Sequence record: MZ170040.1
DNA from: Escherichia phage vB_EcoM_FJ1
Strand: one strand, 5' to 3'
DNA: 64,000 nucleotides
The notes under the pieces were generated by a model. It saw only the letters and a list, made by a program, of their open reading frames with translations, was not told where the DNA came from and searched no databases. Positions 10,395 through 15,957 of the stretch are shown one piece after another. Position 1 is the first letter of the stretch. Each line of letters opens with the position of its first letter. A program made the position numbers and the translations under genes.

Positions 10395-11081
10395 TTAAAA
10401 ATCGTGGGTAGAATCAGCTTCAAGAGCTACTACATAATTCGCGTGTTCACCTTCAAATTTAGCAGCGCCTTGTTTACCTTTTGCCCAGAGCAGAAGTTTA
10501 TAATTTCCTGGTTGCATTTTCATATTTGCCATATTGATAATGAAATTAAATGTATTTTCACCATCATAATCACCAAGAGTCAAAGAATATTTAACACGGG
10601 TCAGAGCAGAATCTTCTACTTTATTAAAACCGTTAATTACGATTTTACCTTCTTTTACCGTGATAGCAATTGTATCAATTTGCAGACCACGAGATACACG
10701 CAACAGTTGTTGAAGGTCTTCAGCTTTAATTTCAGTAACAACAGATGCTACCGGGAATGGAATTGGTTTATTAGGAGCAACTACTGTACTCGGATCGGCT
10801 GCTGGCCAAAAAATTGTTGAACGAGCATCAGCAATTTTAATATTTCCATCTTCTGACTGGGAAATTTCTGCATCATCATTAACTAGAGACAGAATACCGA
10901 GAAAACCGTTCAAATCGTAAATTGCTACATCAAAATCAATAACGTCAGAAATATTTGCTTCCGCATAAGTTGTACCATTAACTGCGCGAGTCATAATAAA
11001 TTGACCGGATTTAAGCATAATGCCAGAGTTAATAGTAGCGAAATTTTTCAAAATATTCAGTGTATCTTTAGACAGTTTCAT
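10395..11081 (-). CDS. 45: sliding clamp gp45
   Basis: 228-aa ORF, same length and position as T4 gp45. Confidence 0.9.
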   Translation of the reverse strand: MKLSKDTLNILKNFATINSGIMLKSGQFIMTRAVNGTTYAEANISDVIDFDVAIYDLNGFLGILSLVNDDAEISQSEDGNIKIADARSTIFWPAADPSTVVAPNKPIPFPVASVVTEIKAEDLQQLLRVSRGLQIDTIAITVKEGKIVINGFNKVEDSALTRVKYSLTLGDYDGENTFNFIINMANMKMQPGNYKLLLWAKGKQGAAKFEGEHANYVVALEADSTHDF

Positions 11082-11779: not shown

Positions 11780-13462
11780 TTAAACCATTACAGTAAATCG
11801 ACCAACTTTCTTCATTTGAAGATGCTGACCATATTCTTGCGGGTCATGGTCTTTATGCGAAATTATAAAAACATTAGTGTTTTTCATTGAATTTATAATA
11901 TTAGCTACACCTTTAATACCTTCGGCATCAAATGACCCATCAAACACTTCATCGAGTATTAATGTACTAATACTAACACCAGATACAATAGAAGCAATAT
12001 CACGCCAAGTAAATAAAAGAGCAACATCAATTCTTGCTTTTTCACCTTCACTAAATGAAGCATAACTAAAATCTTCGCGACCACGGGATTTAATTGTCTC
12101 ATTAAATTCTTCATCTAATGTAAACACATAATCCGCTTCCATTATTTTAAGATAATGGTTAATCTGCTTATTAAATAATGGAATGTACTTTTTAATAATA
12201 GCACCTTTAATACCAGAATCTTTGAGCATATCAGTCAAAATTCCTCGGTGGTATTTTTCCATTACTAAATTAGTTTTTGTCTTAACAATTTTATCAAGTT
12301 CTTCTTGAAGCAGTGCTATTTCATCAGCATGGTCAATAAACTCAGAAGATGCTTTTTCTATAGCCGCTTTAACTTTTTTAGCTTTATCTACTGCTGCGAT
12401 CAGAGATTGCTTTTTATTGCGAATATCATTTGCCAACGACTGCTGAGTTTTAATATTATCTCGGTATTCATCAACAAGAACTTTTAAATTATCACGATGT
12501 GTTGAAAGCTGTTCAAACGAATGCGTGCATTCAGAAACTTTATCTTTAATTTTAGAAACAACTTTATCACCGGAACTCAATTGTGACAAACAGGTTGGAC
12601 ATAATCCACCTTCGTGATACATATTAATGACTTTATTATATGAGTCAATTTTTGATTTAATTAAAACTGCTTCTTGACCGATTTTATTAAATGCATCAGT
12701 CGGGTCTTCATCTAAAACAATATTAACTAATCTTTCATTAGCTTCTTCTATTTCCGATTTTAGCGTTCTAGCTTCTTTTGCCAAATCATCATACATATTT
12801 TGCAGACGAATAAGGTTTTCACCAGTTAATTTTTTCTGGCGTTCAACGTTATCATTATATATTTTAATTTGTTGGATAATACTATCTTTTTTAACATCAA
12901 GCACTTGGTTTTGTGAATTTAATTCGCGTATTAGTGCTTTATTAAGCTTATCCATTTCAGCTAATGTTCCTACCTCGAGCAGGTCTTCCACAAGCTTTCT
13001 TCGCGCAGGGGTCGACAAACCCATGAAAGGGGTATACCCTGCTGTACCAAGGACAACAATCTGCTTGAAACTGGCATATGACATTCCGATAAGCTGTTCA
13101 AATTCTGCTTGGAAATCTTTACTGCTGGCAGATTCATTAAGACGTGTACCGTTAACGGTGATTTCGAAAACGTTTGGTTTTTGTCCTCTTTTGATATAGT
13201 ACTTTTTCTCATCATATTCCATCCACAGTTCAACTAAAAGTTCTTTCTTATTTGTGCTGTTTATTAATTGACCTTTCTTTACATCACGAAATGGCTTGCC
13301 AAAAAGCCCAAATGTGATGGCTTCTAACATAGTAGACTTACCACCGCCATTTCGTCCAGTAATAAGAGTTTTTTGAACCTTATCTAATTGAATGTCAACT
13401 CCATTTTGACCAACTGACATTATATTTTTATATTTTACTCTATTAAGTTTAAATGATTTCAT
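11780..13462 (-). CDS. 46: recombination nuclease subunit gp46 (Rad50/SbcC-like ATPase)
   Basis: 560 aa; Walker A GRNGGGKST, zinc hook CPTC, signature and Walker B (LILDEVFDGSFD) motifs. Confidence 0.9.
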   Translation of the reverse strand: MKSFKLNRVKYKNIMSVGQNGVDIQLDKVQKTLITGRNGGGKSTMLEAITFGLFGKPFRDVKKGQLINSTNKKELLVELWMEYDEKKYYIKRGQKPNVFEITVNGTRLNESASSKDFQAEFEQLIGMSYASFKQIVVLGTAGYTPFMGLSTPARRKLVEDLLEVGTLAEMDKLNKALIRELNSQNQVLDVKKDSIIQQIKIYNDNVERQKKLTGENLIRLQNMYDDLAKEARTLKSEIEEANERLVNIVLDEDPTDAFNKIGQEAVLIKSKIDSYNKVINMYHEGGLCPTCLSQLSSGDKVVSKIKDKVSECTHSFEQLSTHRDNLKVLVDEYRDNIKTQQSLANDIRNKKQSLIAAVDKAKKVKAAIEKASSEFIDHADEIALLQEELDKIVKTKTNLVMEKYHRGILTDMLKDSGIKGAIIKKYIPLFNKQINHYLKIMEADYVFTLDEEFNETIKSRGREDFSYASFSEGEKARIDVALLFTWRDIASIVSGVSISTLILDEVFDGSFDAEGIKGVANIINSMKNTNVFIISHKDHDPQEYGQHLQMKKVGRFTVMV

Positions 13463-13477
13463 TTTGTATCCAATTGT

Positions 13478-14332
13478 TCACAATGAAGAAAATTCTTTAA
13501 CTAAAGCCTGTAATGAAGCCTCTATTGGATATCCGTTCTTAACTAACATTTTCCTAAACATCACATGTTTAGGACGATTATATGATATCCACAATTCATA
13601 CAATTTATCTTTATTATCCCAATGATAGCCTTTTCGTCGAGATGCTATATGAGCTTTTCTAATCTCCGGATTTTTCCAACTAGCAGCTACTGAATTTGAT
13701 ATAGCTATTTTATATTCAGGTTTTGATAAAGCAGCACGAACAGCCTTTTGGTGTTTAATTTTATTTTCTTCGTTATTAAACCATTCCCTTGAAGCCATTG
13801 AAATTTTTTGTTTTGTTTTAAAATTATTTAATCTTTCTTTGTTATCTTTCCTATTTTTTGCTACTGAAAAATATTTTAATGCCCTTTCTCTAGCAGCATT
13901 TCTATTTTGTGGATTTGAATAATACTGTTGAAGCCTTTTTGATATTGTGTCACTTACATCTTGTTTTATAAAACTATATTCAGCAGCTATTAAATCAACT
14001 TCGGCTAAAGATAAATTTTTATATGTTTTTCCTGACATCATTCTATTTAAAGCATTTAGCATTTTTCCATTTTTACCTTTTGCTAATAAGAAATGTGCTT
14101 TAAAATGATTAAAATGACTTAAATTAACTAAATTCCATGTAGATTTTAAATATTCAGGAAATATTGATTTAGGAAGCACGTGATGTGCTTCCGTTTTACC
14201 TGGAGTTTTAACAGTTGAATTCATAGAAATAAAATTAATGTAAGACTTGGCGTCTTCTTCACTCAACGCTAATTTTTCAACTAATTCCTTTATTAAAAAT
14301 TCATCATTAATGTCAAGTTTAAAATTCTTCAC
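13478..14332 (-). CDS. HNH-family homing endonuclease-like protein
   Basis: 284 aa, GTG start overlapping the upstream stop; HHVLPKS...N...HFNHFKAH HNH-like motif; lysine-rich, AT-rich; inserted between genes 47 and 46. Confidence 0.65.
   Translation of the reverse strand: MKNFKLDINDEFLIKELVEKLALSEEDAKSYINFISMNSTVKTPGKTEAHHVLPKSIFPEYLKSTWNLVNLSHFNHFKAHFLLAKGKNGKMLNALNRMMSGKTYKNLSLAEVDLIAAEYSFIKQDVSDTISKRLQQYYSNPQNRNAARERALKYFSVAKNRKDNKERLNNFKTKQKISMASREWFNNEENKIKHQKAVRAALSKPEYKIAISNSVAASWKNPEIRKAHIASRRKGYHWDNKDKLYELWISYNRPKHVMFRKMLVKNGYPIEASLQALVKEFSSL
14296..14332. repeat. direct repeat copy A (about 37 bp, core 18 bp exact)
   Basis: ATTCATCATTAATGTCAA at 14299-14316 recurs at 14502-14519 with similar flanks; encodes DINDEF in both the HNH N-terminus and the upstream ORF. 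Confidence 0.7.
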
Positions 14333-14592
14333 AAAAGATTCCTTTTAATGTATCTTTTAGACCATTCTATCATATCATCATAATCTAAAAAGTATTCATC
14401 AAATTCAGCCATGCAAACAACACCTTGTGCTGCTTTTGATGTGATATAAATTATTCCAACATATCTAGAATCTTCTTCGGTATAATCAATATTTGCTATG
14501 AATTCATCATTAATGTCAAATGTCGAAAACTTCACAATACGCATCCTTAATACAAGATACAGCCATATCTCGTAATGATTTAGGTGTGTCAT
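14329..14592 (-). CDS. hypothetical protein
   Basis: 87-aa ORF; overlaps the next ORF by 77 nt, so the true start may be internal. Confidence 0.35.
   Translation of the reverse strand: MTHLNHYEIWLYLVLRMRIVKFSTFDINDEFIANIDYTEEDSRYVGIIYITSKAAQGVVCMAEFDEYFLDYDDMIEWSKRYIKRNLL
14499..14535. repeat. direct repeat copy B
   Basis: See copy A; 18-bp exact core at 14502-14519. Confidence 0.7.
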
Positions 14593-14779
14593 TATCTAAA
14601 ATGTTGAAGTTAAAAGATACAGCCCAGTCAGTGCAGACTGTAACCTTTTTAATACAATTATCTTCAACCTCTAGCGGTTCAAACCAATATTCAATAATTT
14701 CTTTATGCCCAATATCATCTTTTACTTCGCATTCAAAATGCTGACTCATCATAACATTTTTAAATTCATCAAAAGTCAT
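14516..14779 (-). CDS. hypothetical protein
   Basis: 87-aa Cys-rich acidic ORF starting at the gp47 stop. Confidence 0.4.
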   Translation of the reverse strand: MTFDEFKNVMMSQHFECEVKDDIGHKEIIEYWFEPLEVEDNCIKKVTVCTDWAVSFNFNILDNDTPKSLRDMAVSCIKDAYCEVFDI

Positions 14780-15795
14780 TGTGTTGCCTCTACATATAGC
14801 TGATTTGCATATTGAATAAGTGCTTCACGATCAGAATCAGTGATGTCTGGAATTGCATTAATGTATTCTTCCATCAACGTCTGAAGAGATTGAACTTCAA
14901 CTTCTTCACTGTCATCTGACTCGACAGAGTTATCAATTTTTGACACAACTCGTAATGAATGCACAACTTTTTCTAGTTCAGATTCGAACTTCGTTAGATT
15001 TTTGTCTACTTCAGTTACTATAACACGTACTGATAGATTTGTAAAATCTTTATAGTCAATTTTTCCTTTAAATGGATAATGAATTCTACGATGCCAGGTA
15101 GTATTGTTTGGAATAAATTCCATTCGTTCTGTTTCTGTATCAAACATCCAGAACCCACGAGGGTCATTCTCGTCACCTGCTGTTAGTGTCCATGGTGTCC
15201 CAATATATCTGACGTTTGCAGCCTCAGAAATAGTATGGAAGTGACCAGACCACACTTCTTTATAAGTCTTAAGGAAATCAGGTTCAAGACCGTGAGATTT
15301 CATTCCTTTATAAAAATAAAATCCATTCAGTTCCCAGTGACCAACACAAAAAGAAGCAGATGAAGTTTTGATGTGCTCAAGAATTTCACCAGTATTTTCT
15401 TCGCACATCCAAGGAATTAAATCAATTAAACATCCGTCAAAATCGACTGTAGTAGGCTTATCATATACTTTAACATTAGGATATTTAGCCAAAAGCTCAG
15501 TAGAGGCATTTGGATGCATTACATTTTTGTAGTGGAGATCGTGATTTCCTACAATAGTATGTAATGTGATTCCAGCACCATCAAGCATTTGAACTATTTC
15601 ACGGGCAAACTCCATAGTTTTATGTGTGATTGCTTTTCGCACATCAAAAATATCACCGTATTGAATCCAGGTAGTAATTCCATTTTTCTTAGAATATTCT
15701 ATCGCTTGCTTAATTCCATCAATTTGAATACCGCGAATCCACTCATCATCAGCTTTAACGCCTAAATGCCAATCACCTAAATTTAAAATTTTCAT
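14776..15795 (-). CDS. 47: recombination nuclease subunit gp47 (Mre11/SbcD-like phosphoesterase)
   Basis: 339 aa; calcineurin-like motifs (LGDWHLG, GDIFD, GNHD, GHFH). Confidence 0.9.
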   Translation of the reverse strand: MKILNLGDWHLGVKADDEWIRGIQIDGIKQAIEYSKKNGITTWIQYGDIFDVRKAITHKTMEFAREIVQMLDGAGITLHTIVGNHDLHYKNVMHPNASTELLAKYPNVKVYDKPTTVDFDGCLIDLIPWMCEENTGEILEHIKTSSASFCVGHWELNGFYFYKGMKSHGLEPDFLKTYKEVWSGHFHTISEAANVRYIGTPWTLTAGDENDPRGFWMFDTETERMEFIPNNTTWHRRIHYPFKGKIDYKDFTNLSVRVIVTEVDKNLTKFESELEKVVHSLRVVSKIDNSVESDDSEEVEVQSLQTLMEEYINAIPDITDSDREALIQYANQLYVEATQ

Positions 15796-15957
15796 ATATC
15801 AAGAACCGTCATTGAAATGCAAAATAAAATTATTGAAATAAATCCATCTGGAGTGCTAAAGAACCCAATCCAACATGCTCTAGTGAATAGATAAAATGCA
15901 AGAAAAAGTATCACATATCCAAGAAATATCATTATATCAAACTCCGTATAAAGCTAA

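Follow-up and report, generated by a model that had tools for sequence, protein, structure and literature searches.

The window analysed here is the whole 64,000-nucleotide stretch of Escherichia phage vB_EcoM_FJ1 (sequence record MZ170040.1). Within it, genes 46.2, 46.1 and 46 lie on the minus strand in that coding order, with one additional open reading frame (ORF) between 46.1 and 46 (Table 1). The initial annotation had described this ORF as a 284-residue frame with a GTG start, lying between genes 47 and 46, which it took to be near-adjacent in T4. The ORF is confirmed as described, but genes 46.2 and 46.1 intervene between 47 and 46 in T4. The ORF directly upstream of the additional frame is T4 gene 46.1. 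Its true start is the GTG at position 14535, inside the 3' end of 46.2, and the ATG at 14592 is an artefact of choosing the longest ORF. We refer to the additional frame as the HEG (homing endonuclease gene) for the reasons given below.

Table 1. Features of the 46.2–46 region of the window, in order of position.
Feature	Position	Strand	Remarks
Gene 46, Rad50/SbcC-like recombination nuclease subunit	11780..13462	-	restarted with MKSFKL
HEG-linked variant block	13397..13447	-	gene 46 codons 6–22; NRVKYKNIMSVGQNGV versus NRVRYQNIMSVGGNPI in empty RB27-type alleles
9-bp direct repeat TTTAAACTT, right copy	13445..13453	-	flanks insertion
Insertion relative to T4	13445..14314	-	870 bp, 290 codons; alignment of window with T4
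Cassette-supplied gene 46 start	13460..13477	-	spacer ACAATTGGATACAAA, GGA ~8 nt upstream, plus ATG
HEG ORF	13478..14332	-	284 aa; GTG start overlapping the 46.1 stop codon (TTGTGA)
HNH catalytic core	14093..14191	-	residues 48–80 (EAHHVLPKS...WNLVNLSHFNHFKAH)
19-mer, HEG copy	14298..14316	-	..L DINDEF; HEG codons 7–12
9-bp direct repeat TTTAAACTT, left copy	14315..14323	-	flanks insertion
Captured gene 46 start	14315..14332	-	GTG AAG AAT TTT AAA CTT (MKNFKL) = HEG codons 1–6
Gene 46.1	14329..14535	-	68 aa; Pfam DUF5487, E 2e-48; T4 and F26 annotations
19-mer, source copy	14501..14519	-	F DINDEF; gene 46.1 codons 7–12
Gene 46.2, T4_Y03C family	14516..14779	-	Pfam PF25721, E 3e-43; T4 annotation

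The HEG protein matches PHROG 655 ('homing endonuclease') with an E value of 8e-45, and many GenBank records carry the same label for the ORF. In tblastn searches residues 47–281 are 30% identical to T4 MobD (E 2e-11), and other Mob-like HEGs are also matched. Foldseek matches in BFVD are phage HNH/Mob proteins, including T4 MobB (P13329) and MobC (P07074); searches of solved structures with the protein returned nothing useful. An exhaustive representative search yielded 975 homologues; a word-indexed protein search recovered six relatives only. Across an alignment of 80 diverse homologues (20–41% identity) Tyr31, His50, His51, Pro54, Asn67, His76 and His80 are invariant. The resulting HH..N..H motif comprises a His-His general base, an Asn and His metal ligands, with a spacing that fits the HNH superfamily. 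The AF2 model of this core has strands at residues 47–51 and 68–72 and a helix at 73–84 (pLDDT ~90), and the C-terminal half of the model is of low confidence.

The annotation as an HNH homing endonuclease is borne out by this motif and by the homology to Mob proteins, but not by domain scans: neither a Pfam scan of the protein (E <= 1) nor an NCBIfam scan reports an HNH family. T4 MobD itself is below threshold for the HNH profile (18.1 bits versus a cut-off of 21.4), and the Pfam HNH family PF01844 is matched by three of the 80 homologues at E <= 1e-3. The HNH assignment is made by us at the level of the family. The further suggestion of an HNH-AP2 enzyme is not supported, AP2 being absent from Pfam scans of the HEG protein and of all 80 homologues. 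NUMOD3 is found in 22 of the 80 homologues and an I-HmuI NUMOD-like domain in three; the Pfam scan finds no NUMOD module in the HEG protein itself. Repeated W..NPE.R.KH motifs can be discerned by eye at about residues 139–235. In our view, the ORF is, on the strength of its sequence, a free-standing Mob-like HNH homing endonuclease gene, carried by a ~0.9-kb cassette that sits within the 5' end of gene 46. As mobile elements go, it is of a familiar type, neat but essentially ordinary.

When the window is aligned with T4, the insertion falls after the sixth codon of gene 46. The T4 gene begins GTG AAG AAT TTT AAA CTT AAT AGA, overlapping the 46.1 stop codon. The window has the same first 18 nt followed by GAC ATT... 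and, further on, ATG AAA TCA TTT AAA CTT AAT AGA. The captured start is identical to that of T4 gene 46, including the upstream 3' end of 46.1 with its AAGGA ribosome-binding site. The inserted segment opens with codon 7 of the HEG, runs through the HEG body to a TGA stop codon, and ends with a 15-nt spacer followed by a new ATG AAA TCA TTT AAA CTT. As read from this alignment, the real duplication at the junction is that of the first six codons of gene 46, 9 bp of which are exact (TTTAAACTT).

We infer from this arrangement that the HEG lacks its own start and relies for translation on the native GTG of gene 46, with the 46.1 stop overlap and the AAGGA site retained, so that its first six residues would be those of gp46. 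As the 3' end of the cassette supplies a stop codon, the spacer and an ATG with six codons, gp46 itself would be almost unchanged, with MKSFKL in place of MKNFKL. The corresponding cassettes of SEA1 and PNJ-9 likewise have GGA or GAGGA preceding the gene 46 start. No late-promoter sequence (TATAAATA) is present inside or near the insert and the number of sigma-70-like matches there is at or below shuffle expectation; a HEG-specific promoter is therefore not proposed.

A target-site duplication of the transposon type was considered and rejected, since TTTAAACTT belongs to two non-identical 18-nt gene 46 starts (GTGAAGAAT.. and ATGAAATCA..); the insert has no terminal inverted repeats, and its sole ORF encodes the HNH nuclease, leaving no transposase. 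The 3' end of the HEG was also examined as a possible relic of a Mosigvirus-type 46.1/46 junction, for which the similarity was not significant (p ~0.29). For the T4-type junction the resemblance is marginal, with p ~0.02 uncorrected for the six tests made.

The insert is polymorphic among T4-like genomes. The HEG is present in about 70 of ~517 Tequatrovirus records (~1 in 7), is intact in T6, is frameshifted in T2, RB51, RB68 and Ac3, and is absent from T4. The whole region is found in 71 of 518 records and the HEG 3' end is joined to gene 46 in 70; the 46.1/46 junction is uninterrupted in 440 of the 517 Tequatrovirus records. A HEG also occupies the 5' end of gene 46 in ten of 162 Mosigvirus and five of 16 Gelderlandvirus records, where the homologues at this same site are ~44% identical to that of the window. 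The gene order is 47–HEG–46 in SEA1 and 46.2–HEG–46 in PNJ-9, and the HEG-less Mosigvirus records that were sampled have 46.1 (DUF5487) at the HEG position. The HEG body starts at the same homologous residue in the three genera, each time behind a different resident leader. The first 22 nt (MTKTDYE) are common to the PNJ-9 HEG and PhAPEC2 46.1. The direction of this sharing, from 46.1 to the HEG or the reverse, is ambiguous because Mosigvirus 46.1 has a seven-residue N-terminal extension that is missing from other 46.1 proteins. A literature search found no description of a HEG associated with gene 46.

In all HEG-containing alleles the first ~66 nt of gene 46 include a diverged block. There are 14 mismatches in 60 nt, compared with a background of 0–1 per 30 nt. 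In successive 30-nt intervals of gene 46 the window differs from RB27 at 7, 7 and then ~0 positions. The pattern is repeated in Mosigvirus and Gelderlandvirus, with values of 10, 15 and then ~0 for SEA1 against S16, and of 2, 9, 3, 3 and then background for PNJ-9 against PhAPEC2. The edge of the block is sharp, at about nt 60–66 of gene 46 in each of the three genera, and all 70 HEG-containing records show 98.5% identity or more over its length. On the other side of the insert, Tequatrovirus and Mosigvirus show essentially no differences in the left flank as far as the junction, and those of SEA1 are confined to the final ~12 nt of gene 47. At the protein level the HEG-containing alleles of the three genera always read Y[K/S]NIMSVGQ, compared with YQNIMSVGG[N/S]P in the HEG-less alleles of these genera that lack the block. 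The HEG-less genomes of the T4 type have the HEG-associated form of the block, differing from HEG-containing alleles at two of the first 60 nt.

The variant block is likely to be the target or immunity region of the enzyme, as predicted from these comparisons. We propose that the endonuclease would cut or nick HEG-less RB27-type alleles of gene 46 at about codons 11–22, and that repair from a co-infecting HEG-containing genome would copy the cassette together with the block, which in turn would make that genome immune. Co-conversion of the interval between the break and the HEG is a behaviour described for free-standing T4 endonucleases (PMC2988022). T4-type genomes would then represent resistant empty sites, with the block present and the HEG gone, arising most simply by deletion between the 9-bp TTTAAACTT repeats.

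Alternatively, the T4-type alleles could be ancestral recipients that never lost a HEG; the block would then not determine immunity in Tequatrovirus. This leads to the strongest of the competing explanations, that the HEG inserted straight into an ancestral T4-type allele, that the block is a hitch-hiking polymorphism and that the target spans the insertion point, as for intron-encoded enzymes. The near-identity of the T4-type and HEG-containing flanks, block included (those same two mismatches), agrees with it, as does the disruption by the insertion of the sequence to the left of TTTAAACTT. However, the Gln12/Gly19 form is common to HEG-less alleles of three genera and the Lys/Ser12–Gln19 form travels with the HEG in all three, while the sharp end of the block is what is expected if the break occurs there and the interval is always co-converted. 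We regard direct insertion into a T4-type allele as unlikely, although it retains more weight than the other alternatives discussed below.

The initial annotation had also drawn attention to an 18-bp exact duplication and to a peptide shared by the HEG and the upstream ORF. Both observations hold. Across the 64-kb window there are exactly two copies of the 18-mer (ATTCATCATTAATGTCAA), at 14299–14316 and 14502–14519, against a chance expectation of 0.05 matches, and none of 100 shuffles contained two or more copies. The exact repeat extends to 19 nt, within a 46-nt block that is 78% identical. The HEG protein begins MKNFKLDINDEF and the upstream ORF reads ..KFSTFDINDEF. The DINDEF segment of 46.1 aligns with FNLDDEF, FSIGDGY and FNLGNGW in the 46.1 proteins of other genera; because of these counterparts we regard it as native to 46.1. 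A separate suspicion, that 46.1 is itself a decayed HEG copy, arose from the resemblance of an N-terminal DINDEF..EED..Y..I and a C-terminal AEFD. It was ruled out, as the 46.1 proteins of four genera align end to end as a conserved family of 68–79 residues, within which the DINDEF segment is homologous.

The 19-mer requires a separate recombination event for its explanation. The DINDEF copy in the HEG is probably the relic of an earlier fusion between 46.1 and the HEG, as the sequences suggest. In that earlier allele the HEG would have replaced the body of 46.1 and kept its first codons, as in present-day Mosigvirus, and a later mispaired repair, with the similar starts GTGAAGAATTTTAAACTT (gene 46) and GTGAAGTTTTCGACATTT (46.1) as partners, would have moved the cassette downstream of an intact 46.1. 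For an ancestral allele in which 46.1 codons 1–12 are fused to the HEG and a full-length 46.1 is lacking, a megablast search of phages with a synthetic junction gave the tandem arrangement only, in two pieces; exact-pattern scans of IMG/VR and metagenome contigs gave no match, nor did a degenerate-pattern locus search of IMG/VR.

A less probable account dispenses with the fusion allele altogether: DINDEF would be the HEG's own N-terminus, made identical to 46.1 by short-patch gene conversion, in either direction, between neighbouring sequences that were alike by chance. The two copies are separated by only 203 bp, share strand and codon register and each follow a GTG AAG start, and MAFFT pairs DINDEF of the window with IDAET of SEA1 and TDYET of PNJ-9, a weak D-x-E-[T/F] resemblance. 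Against this, nearly all of the best 150 of the 975 homologues align only from about residue 13 onward, and all HEG-less Tequatrovirus have the segment in 46.1, of which other genera have a diverged version. Furthermore, T2 (GAT) and F26 (CTT) each have one SNP in the HEG copy and none in that of 46.1, which argues against ongoing homogenization. We therefore consider gene conversion improbable, and the fusion relic remains our preferred explanation of the repeat.

Selection of the 19-mer as a cis element in both mRNAs, such as a translational operator or an RNA structure after the GTG AAG starts, would suit its position at codons 7–12 after a GTG that overlaps the upstream stop codon in both genes, but is very improbable given that the HEG copy tolerates these SNPs and that T4 gene 46, which has a start of this kind as well, lacks the 19-mer. 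Equally improbable is the interpretation first offered for the repeat, namely a duplicated insertion site left by a HEG landing between 47 and 46: the repeat is real, non-random and at the 5' edge of the HEG, but the comparison of empty and occupied alleles contradicts this origin. It puts the insertion behind the sixth codon of gene 46 and the 19-mer's source copy 203 bp upstream in 46.1, and the sequence duplicated at the junction is the start of gene 46 (exactly, TTTAAACTT). Only an empty allele with GACATTAATGATGAATT at the 46.1/46 junction would revive this interpretation.

Taken as a whole, the best explanation is that a HEG cassette is lodged in gene 46, that its target lies in RB27-type alleles, that the block confers immunity, that T4-type alleles have lost the HEG and that the DINDEF copy is a fusion relic; we give this combination a probability of about 0.72. 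A more far-reaching version is offered tentatively, and we would not put it at even odds. The HEG would be a start-less 'start-swap' cassette that occupies the initiation region of gene 46 and returns a spare one, and that has moved among at least three Tevenvirinae genera, taking a new leader in each (M, MTKTDYE and MKNFKL plus DINDEF); the 5' end of T4 gene 46 would then be the scar of an invasion. If this were true, the T-even 46 locus would display all four stages in the life cycle of a homing endonuclease, sensitive in RB27, occupied in T6, decaying in T2 and lost but resistant in T4. Because gene 46 encodes part of the nuclease believed to process the double-strand breaks that homing needs, expression of the HEG would also be tied to the machinery by which it spreads.

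The general picture of intronless homing is unchanged by these findings. They add an uncharacterized Mob-like homing endonuclease with a clearly predicted target, at codons ~11–22 of gene 46. As the classical phages T2, T4, T6 and RB27 supply decaying, resistant-empty, intact and sensitive-empty alleles, respectively, the cycle of invasion, decay and loss is directly testable with standard strains. The locus also illustrates one concrete route by which a selfish gene may enter an essential coding sequence without harm, which is to seize the start codon and bring a replacement. Some caution is warranted with T4 itself, as earlier movement of HEGs may have shaped both the N-terminal sequence of its gp46 and its 46.1/46 junction.

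Among known systems, the closest are the T4 Mob endonucleases (MobA–E) and other free-standing Mob-like HNH enzymes of T4-related phages, with which the HEG protein shares sequence homology and its layout, an HH..N..H nuclease at the N-terminus and a long helical stretch at the C-terminus. Mob-like HEGs are similarly free-standing, patchily distributed among close relatives and overlap the upstream ORF with their start, as described for mobE, mobA and mobC (PMC2988022). The HEG of the window differs in its locus, the 5' end of gene 46, and in lying inside the coding sequence of its neighbour, of which it would use the start codon and first six codons. It is probably the uncharacterized 'other HNH' gene that Table 5 of PMC2993671 lists for T2 and T6.

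The SegF and SegG systems of intronless homing, at T4 genes 56 and 32, respectively, with localized marker exclusion (PMC2988022), also involve a free-standing HEG adjoining an essential gene. In these systems, as predicted here, cleavage takes place within the adjoining gene, tens of base pairs from the insertion point, and a flanking block is co-converted in which the HEG-containing allele differs from sensitive alleles. In contrast to the gene 46 HEG, SegF and SegG are GIY-YIG enzymes encoded at intergenic positions, and their cutting has been shown experimentally. The cut in gene 46 is a predicted one and would be much nearer to the insertion point, at about 15–50 nt.

A HEG within a coding sequence is also found in mobE of the nrdA gene of Aeromonas phage Aeh1 and in T4 mobA with genes 39/60. 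Host genes split in this way stay functional because translation begins again beyond the HEG (cited in PMC2988022). The host protein of both examples consists of two functional polypeptides, whereas in gene 46 six codons only lie upstream of the HEG. As the cassette duplicates these codons, gp46 would be made whole and no reassembly of the protein would be needed.

The HEG ORFs of fungal mitochondrial group I introns are fused in frame to the upstream exon and lack initiation signals of their own. The gene 46 HEG resembles these intron-encoded enzymes in that the endonuclease would be translated from the start of the host gene as an N-terminal fusion. It differs from them in having neither an intron nor splicing, the frame of the host gene being restored instead by the duplicated start.

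The window belongs to a Tequatrovirus (T4-like) genome in which the genes of this region all lie on the - strand in the T4 order. Over 13300–14900 the nearest public genomes are 99% identical to it, and in many of them the 284-aa ORF, whose length and GTG start are as first described, is labelled 'homing endonuclease'; the gene is already on record as a putative homing endonuclease gene (HEG). The initial annotation took genes 47 and 46 to be near-adjacent in T4, which is wrong for T4 but true of the Gelderlandvirus phage STML-198, where the two overlap directly (GTGA; L009 790).

Genes around the HEG in the window
Feature	Position	Strand	Remark
gp45	10395–11081	-	
rpbA, then 45.2	between gp45 and gene 46	-	
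gene 46	11780–13462	-	Rad50-like recombination nuclease subunit
HEG (284-aa ORF)	13478–14332	-	GTG start
46.1	14329–14535	-	Pfam DUF5487, E 2e-48
46.2	14516–14779	-	PF25721
gene 47	14776–15795	-	
47.1, then a-gt	past gene 47	-	

Gene 46.1 starts with the GTG at position 14535, in agreement with the annotations of T4 and of phage F26, the closest relative of the window over this region; the 87-aa ORF from 14592 arises only because the longest ORF was taken. We also note a terminator-like hairpin on the coding strand within 46.2 (14618–14642, -; 9-pair stem, 7-nt loop, then TCTTTTAACT), the flanking sequence of which is conserved in T4. The 47.1 product has 46 residues in the window (15792–15932) and in T4; in F26 a hypothetical ORF of 624 bp occupies the gene 47/a-gt interval instead (L002 4974–5597), and by this comparison the interval is another indel hotspot adjoining the HEG locus.

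By motif and homology, not by a curated-profile match, we file the HEG product as a Mob-like HNH homing endonuclease. The initial HNH assignment is supported by PHROGs ('homing endonuclease', E 8e-45; 'HNH endonuclease', E 4e-15) and by an invariant motif, but Pfam and NCBIfam gave no significant family; T4 MobD is likewise sub-threshold for Pfam HNH. No AP2 domain was found. A tblastn search returned T4 MobD (30% identity, E 2e-11) and many further Mob-like genes, and an exhaustive search yielded 975 homologues. Residues Y31, H50, H51, P54, N67, H76 and H80 are invariant in 80 aligned homologues, 22 of which carry NUMOD3 motifs and three Pfam HNH. The AF2 model places two strands (47–51 and 68–72) and a helix (73–84) about the motif with pLDDT ~90, the C-terminal half being of low confidence. 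Foldseek comparison with viral models retrieved HNH/Mob homing endonucleases, T4 MobB and MobC among them, and PDB searches were uninformative.

A 36%-identical paralogue lies in the nrdD/nrdG interval of Shigella phage ESh25 (L005 2492–3331), the position of mobC in T4, so that members of the family are found at several different essential-gene junctions. An ~820-bp unannotated gap in the gene 56/soc interval of phage Kha5h (L006 2011–2872) encodes another, 30% identical (tblastn, residues 6–281), and looks like a homing endonuclease gene that annotation has missed; the match recurs in several other Tequatrovirus records. In the window a 9-bp perfect inverted repeat with a 3-nt loop (GGAAGCACG/CGTGCTTCC; 14172–14192), terminator-like on the + strand, coincides exactly with the HEG codons for the catalytic residues E-A-H-H-V-L; it is absent from the homologues in phages SEA1 and PNJ-9.

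In T4 the GTG of gene 46 overlaps the stop of 46.1 (..AAT CTT TTG TGA AG AAT TTT AAA CTT AAT AGA GTA..). The window matches T4 through GTG AAG AAT TTT AAA CTT and then runs GAC ATT AAT GAT GAA TTT... into the HEG, which places an 870-bp insert (14314 down to 13445) inside gene 46, behind codon 6. At the far end the window reads ...TCA TTG TGA ACAATTGGATACAAA ATG AAA TCA TTT AAA CTT AAT AGA GTA..., and a 9-bp exact repeat, TTTAAACTT, stands on both sides of the insert. With the insert in this position the HEG would use the start codon of gene 46 itself, and gene 46 would be restarted from a cassette-borne ATG. Ahead of the predicted HEG start, the AAGGA ribosome-binding site within the last part of 46.1 is unchanged, and the first six residues of the product are those of gp46, MKNFKL; gene 46 is predicted to re-initiate at the cassette ATG after a 15-nt spacer, its product beginning MKSFKL. 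The junctions are identical in F26, T6 and T2. On this alignment the genuine junction duplication is the gene 46 start.

The restart of HEG-bearing (HEG+) Tequatrovirus loci, ATG AAA TCA (window 13454–13462), is the native gene 46 start in a HEG-less Mosigvirus (L007 1181–1189), and that of HEG+ Mosigvirus loci, GTG AAA ACA (PNJ-9, L004 3291–3299), is the native start in STML-198. These cassette-borne codons look foreign, which would fit a cassette that has passed from one genus to another. At the 3' end of the HEG (window 13463–13495, -), 18 nt, TCTTCATTGTGAACAATT, lie between conserved GAATT(T/C) and GGATA/AAAAT and supply the earlier TGA stop of the window HEG; SEA1 (L003 3290–3320) and PNJ-9 (L004 3265–3295) have 7 nt in their place. 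In a local alignment they are similar to TCTTTTGTGAAGAATT, where the 46.1 stop meets the 46 start in T4 (shuffle p ~0.02, uncorrected for six tests), and they may be left over from another junction.

The distribution across T4-like genomes agrees with the insertion proposed in the initial annotation. T4 lacks the ORF, and the 46.1/46 junction is uninterrupted in 440 of 517 Tequatrovirus records; in 70 records the HEG 3' end is joined to gene 46, with 46.1 directly upstream of the HEG in every one. T6 and the window have an intact copy, whereas frameshifts split it in T2 (two ORFs), RB51, RB68 (208-aa product) and Ac3. Two other genera have homologues of ~42–44% identity immediately 5' of gene 46, in the order 47–HEG–46 in Gelderlandvirus (SEA1, Melville) and 46.2–HEG–46 in Mosigvirus (PNJ-9, F2, AV112). 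The Mosigvirus HEG occurs in 10 of 162 records, and the HEG-less records examined have 46.1 at that position; the PNJ-9 HEG and PhAPEC2 46.1 have their first 22 nt (MTKTDYE) in common. SEA1 carries its HEG where phage S16 has a 68-aa 46.1 homologue (L008 790–996), which starts at the GTG used for the 47/46 overlap in STML-198. By these comparisons 46.1 too varies by insertion or deletion within Gelderlandvirus; the S16 homologue is flanked by TGAAA repeats, and its record annotates a shorter ORF only (874–996). Since the HEG body starts at the same homologous residue in the three genera, behind the leaders M, MTKTDYE and MKNFKL+DINDEF, the mobile unit appears to lack an initiation codon of its own and to be fused to whichever start is resident.

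The repeat that encodes DINDEF is real: the 18-mer first noted occurs exactly twice in the 64-kb window (0.05 expected by chance; two matches in 0/100 shuffles), although the exact match is 19 nt (14298–14316 and 14501–14519) and the similar block 46 nt at 78% identity. HEG codons 7–12, with the TT of codon 6, are nucleotide-identical to codons 7–12 of 46.1, which also opens GTG AAG and matches the first 18 nt of gene 46 at 12 positions. The repeat had been taken for a copied insertion site, but the segment is, on comparative grounds, native to 46.1: all HEG-less Tequatrovirus genomes examined have it, and it aligns as FDINDEF, FNLDDEF, FSIGDGY and FNLGNGW in 46.1 proteins of four genera. DINDEF is missing from the HEG homologues, nearly all of the best 150 of 975 aligning only from about residue 13, and the two closest have different N-terminal starts. 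Single SNPs in T2 and F26 are confined to the HEG copy; the identity is thus left over from the past and not actively kept up. Present-day Mosigvirus phages with the HEG have it in place of the 46.1 body, its first codons being common to both genes. A Tequatrovirus ancestor built in this way, 46.2-[46.1 codons 1–12::HEG]-46, could have undergone a later repair in which a broken end that terminated in the gene 46 start (GTGAAGAATTTTAAACT) paired with its 46.1 counterpart (GTGAAGTTTTCGACATTT), which is similar; this would yield GTG AAG AAT TTT AAA CTT joined to GAC ATT AAT GAT GAA TT, downstream of an intact 46.1. A search of phage genomes, IMG/VR and metagenome contigs did not find this intermediate, and we therefore offer the repair step tentatively, at a little under even odds.

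Mismatches between HEG+ and HEG-less alleles were counted per 30 nt of gene 46 from the junction. The first bins hold 7 and 7 for the window versus the HEG-less Tequatrovirus RB27 and 10 and 15 for SEA1 versus S16, with 0–1 afterwards in both cases; PNJ-9 versus PhAPEC2 gives 2, 9, 3 and 3, then background. The left flanks are essentially identical up to the junction. In all three genera gp46 reads Y[K/S]NIMSVGQ in HEG+ phages and YQNIMSVGG[N/S]P in HEG-less phages without this diverged block; T4-type genomes are HEG-less yet have the HEG+ form, and Gaprivervirus PSD2001 has a third. The window differs from SEA1 at 2 positions in the first 30 nt (elsewhere 4–14, typically 7–10) and from PNJ-9 at 2 in nt 31–60 (elsewhere ~7). 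In parts of the block the genera thus resemble one another more closely than they do over the remainder of gene 46, which suggests that the cassette end has moved from genus to genus. The cut made by free-standing T4 endonucleases lies in a neighbouring gene, and the stretch from there to the HEG is co-converted (PMC2988022); from this behaviour we infer that the enzyme would cut HEG-less gene 46 within about codons 11–22, the block serving both as an obligatory co-conversion tract and as the source of self-immunity.

The block is also present in ~70 HEG-less Tequatrovirus records, T4 included, with 97.8% identity to the window across query nt 110–200; the RB27-type block occurs in at least 242 records (84.6% identity). 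The Q12/G19 form is common to empty alleles of three genera and so likely ancestral; on that view the simplest reading of T4-type alleles is that they are empty sites, resistant to the enzyme, from which the HEG has been lost. A deletion from one TTTAAACTT repeat to the other would restore the T4 sequence exactly. Less probably, the HEG inserted directly into a pre-existing T4-type allele.

No T4 late promoter motif was found in or near the insert, and sigma-70-like matches there are no commoner than in shuffled sequence. The HEG probably corresponds to the uncharacterised 'other HNH' of T2 and T6 in PMC2993671. In open-access text we found no description of its position inside gene 46, of start capture and restart or the chimeric leader, of cross-genus site conservation at gene 46, or of T4 as a block-bearing empty allele. 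The architecture is neat, and the predicted target lends itself to a direct test. The HEG is probably transcribed as part of the 47–46 unit, its translation being coupled to the 3' end of 46.1, a layout already discussed for mobE and other overlapping T4 HEGs (PMC2988022). Its predicted start overlaps the end of the upstream gene, as theirs do, and it would resemble the free-standing T4 endonucleases in its predicted cut in a neighbouring gene and its co-converted interval.
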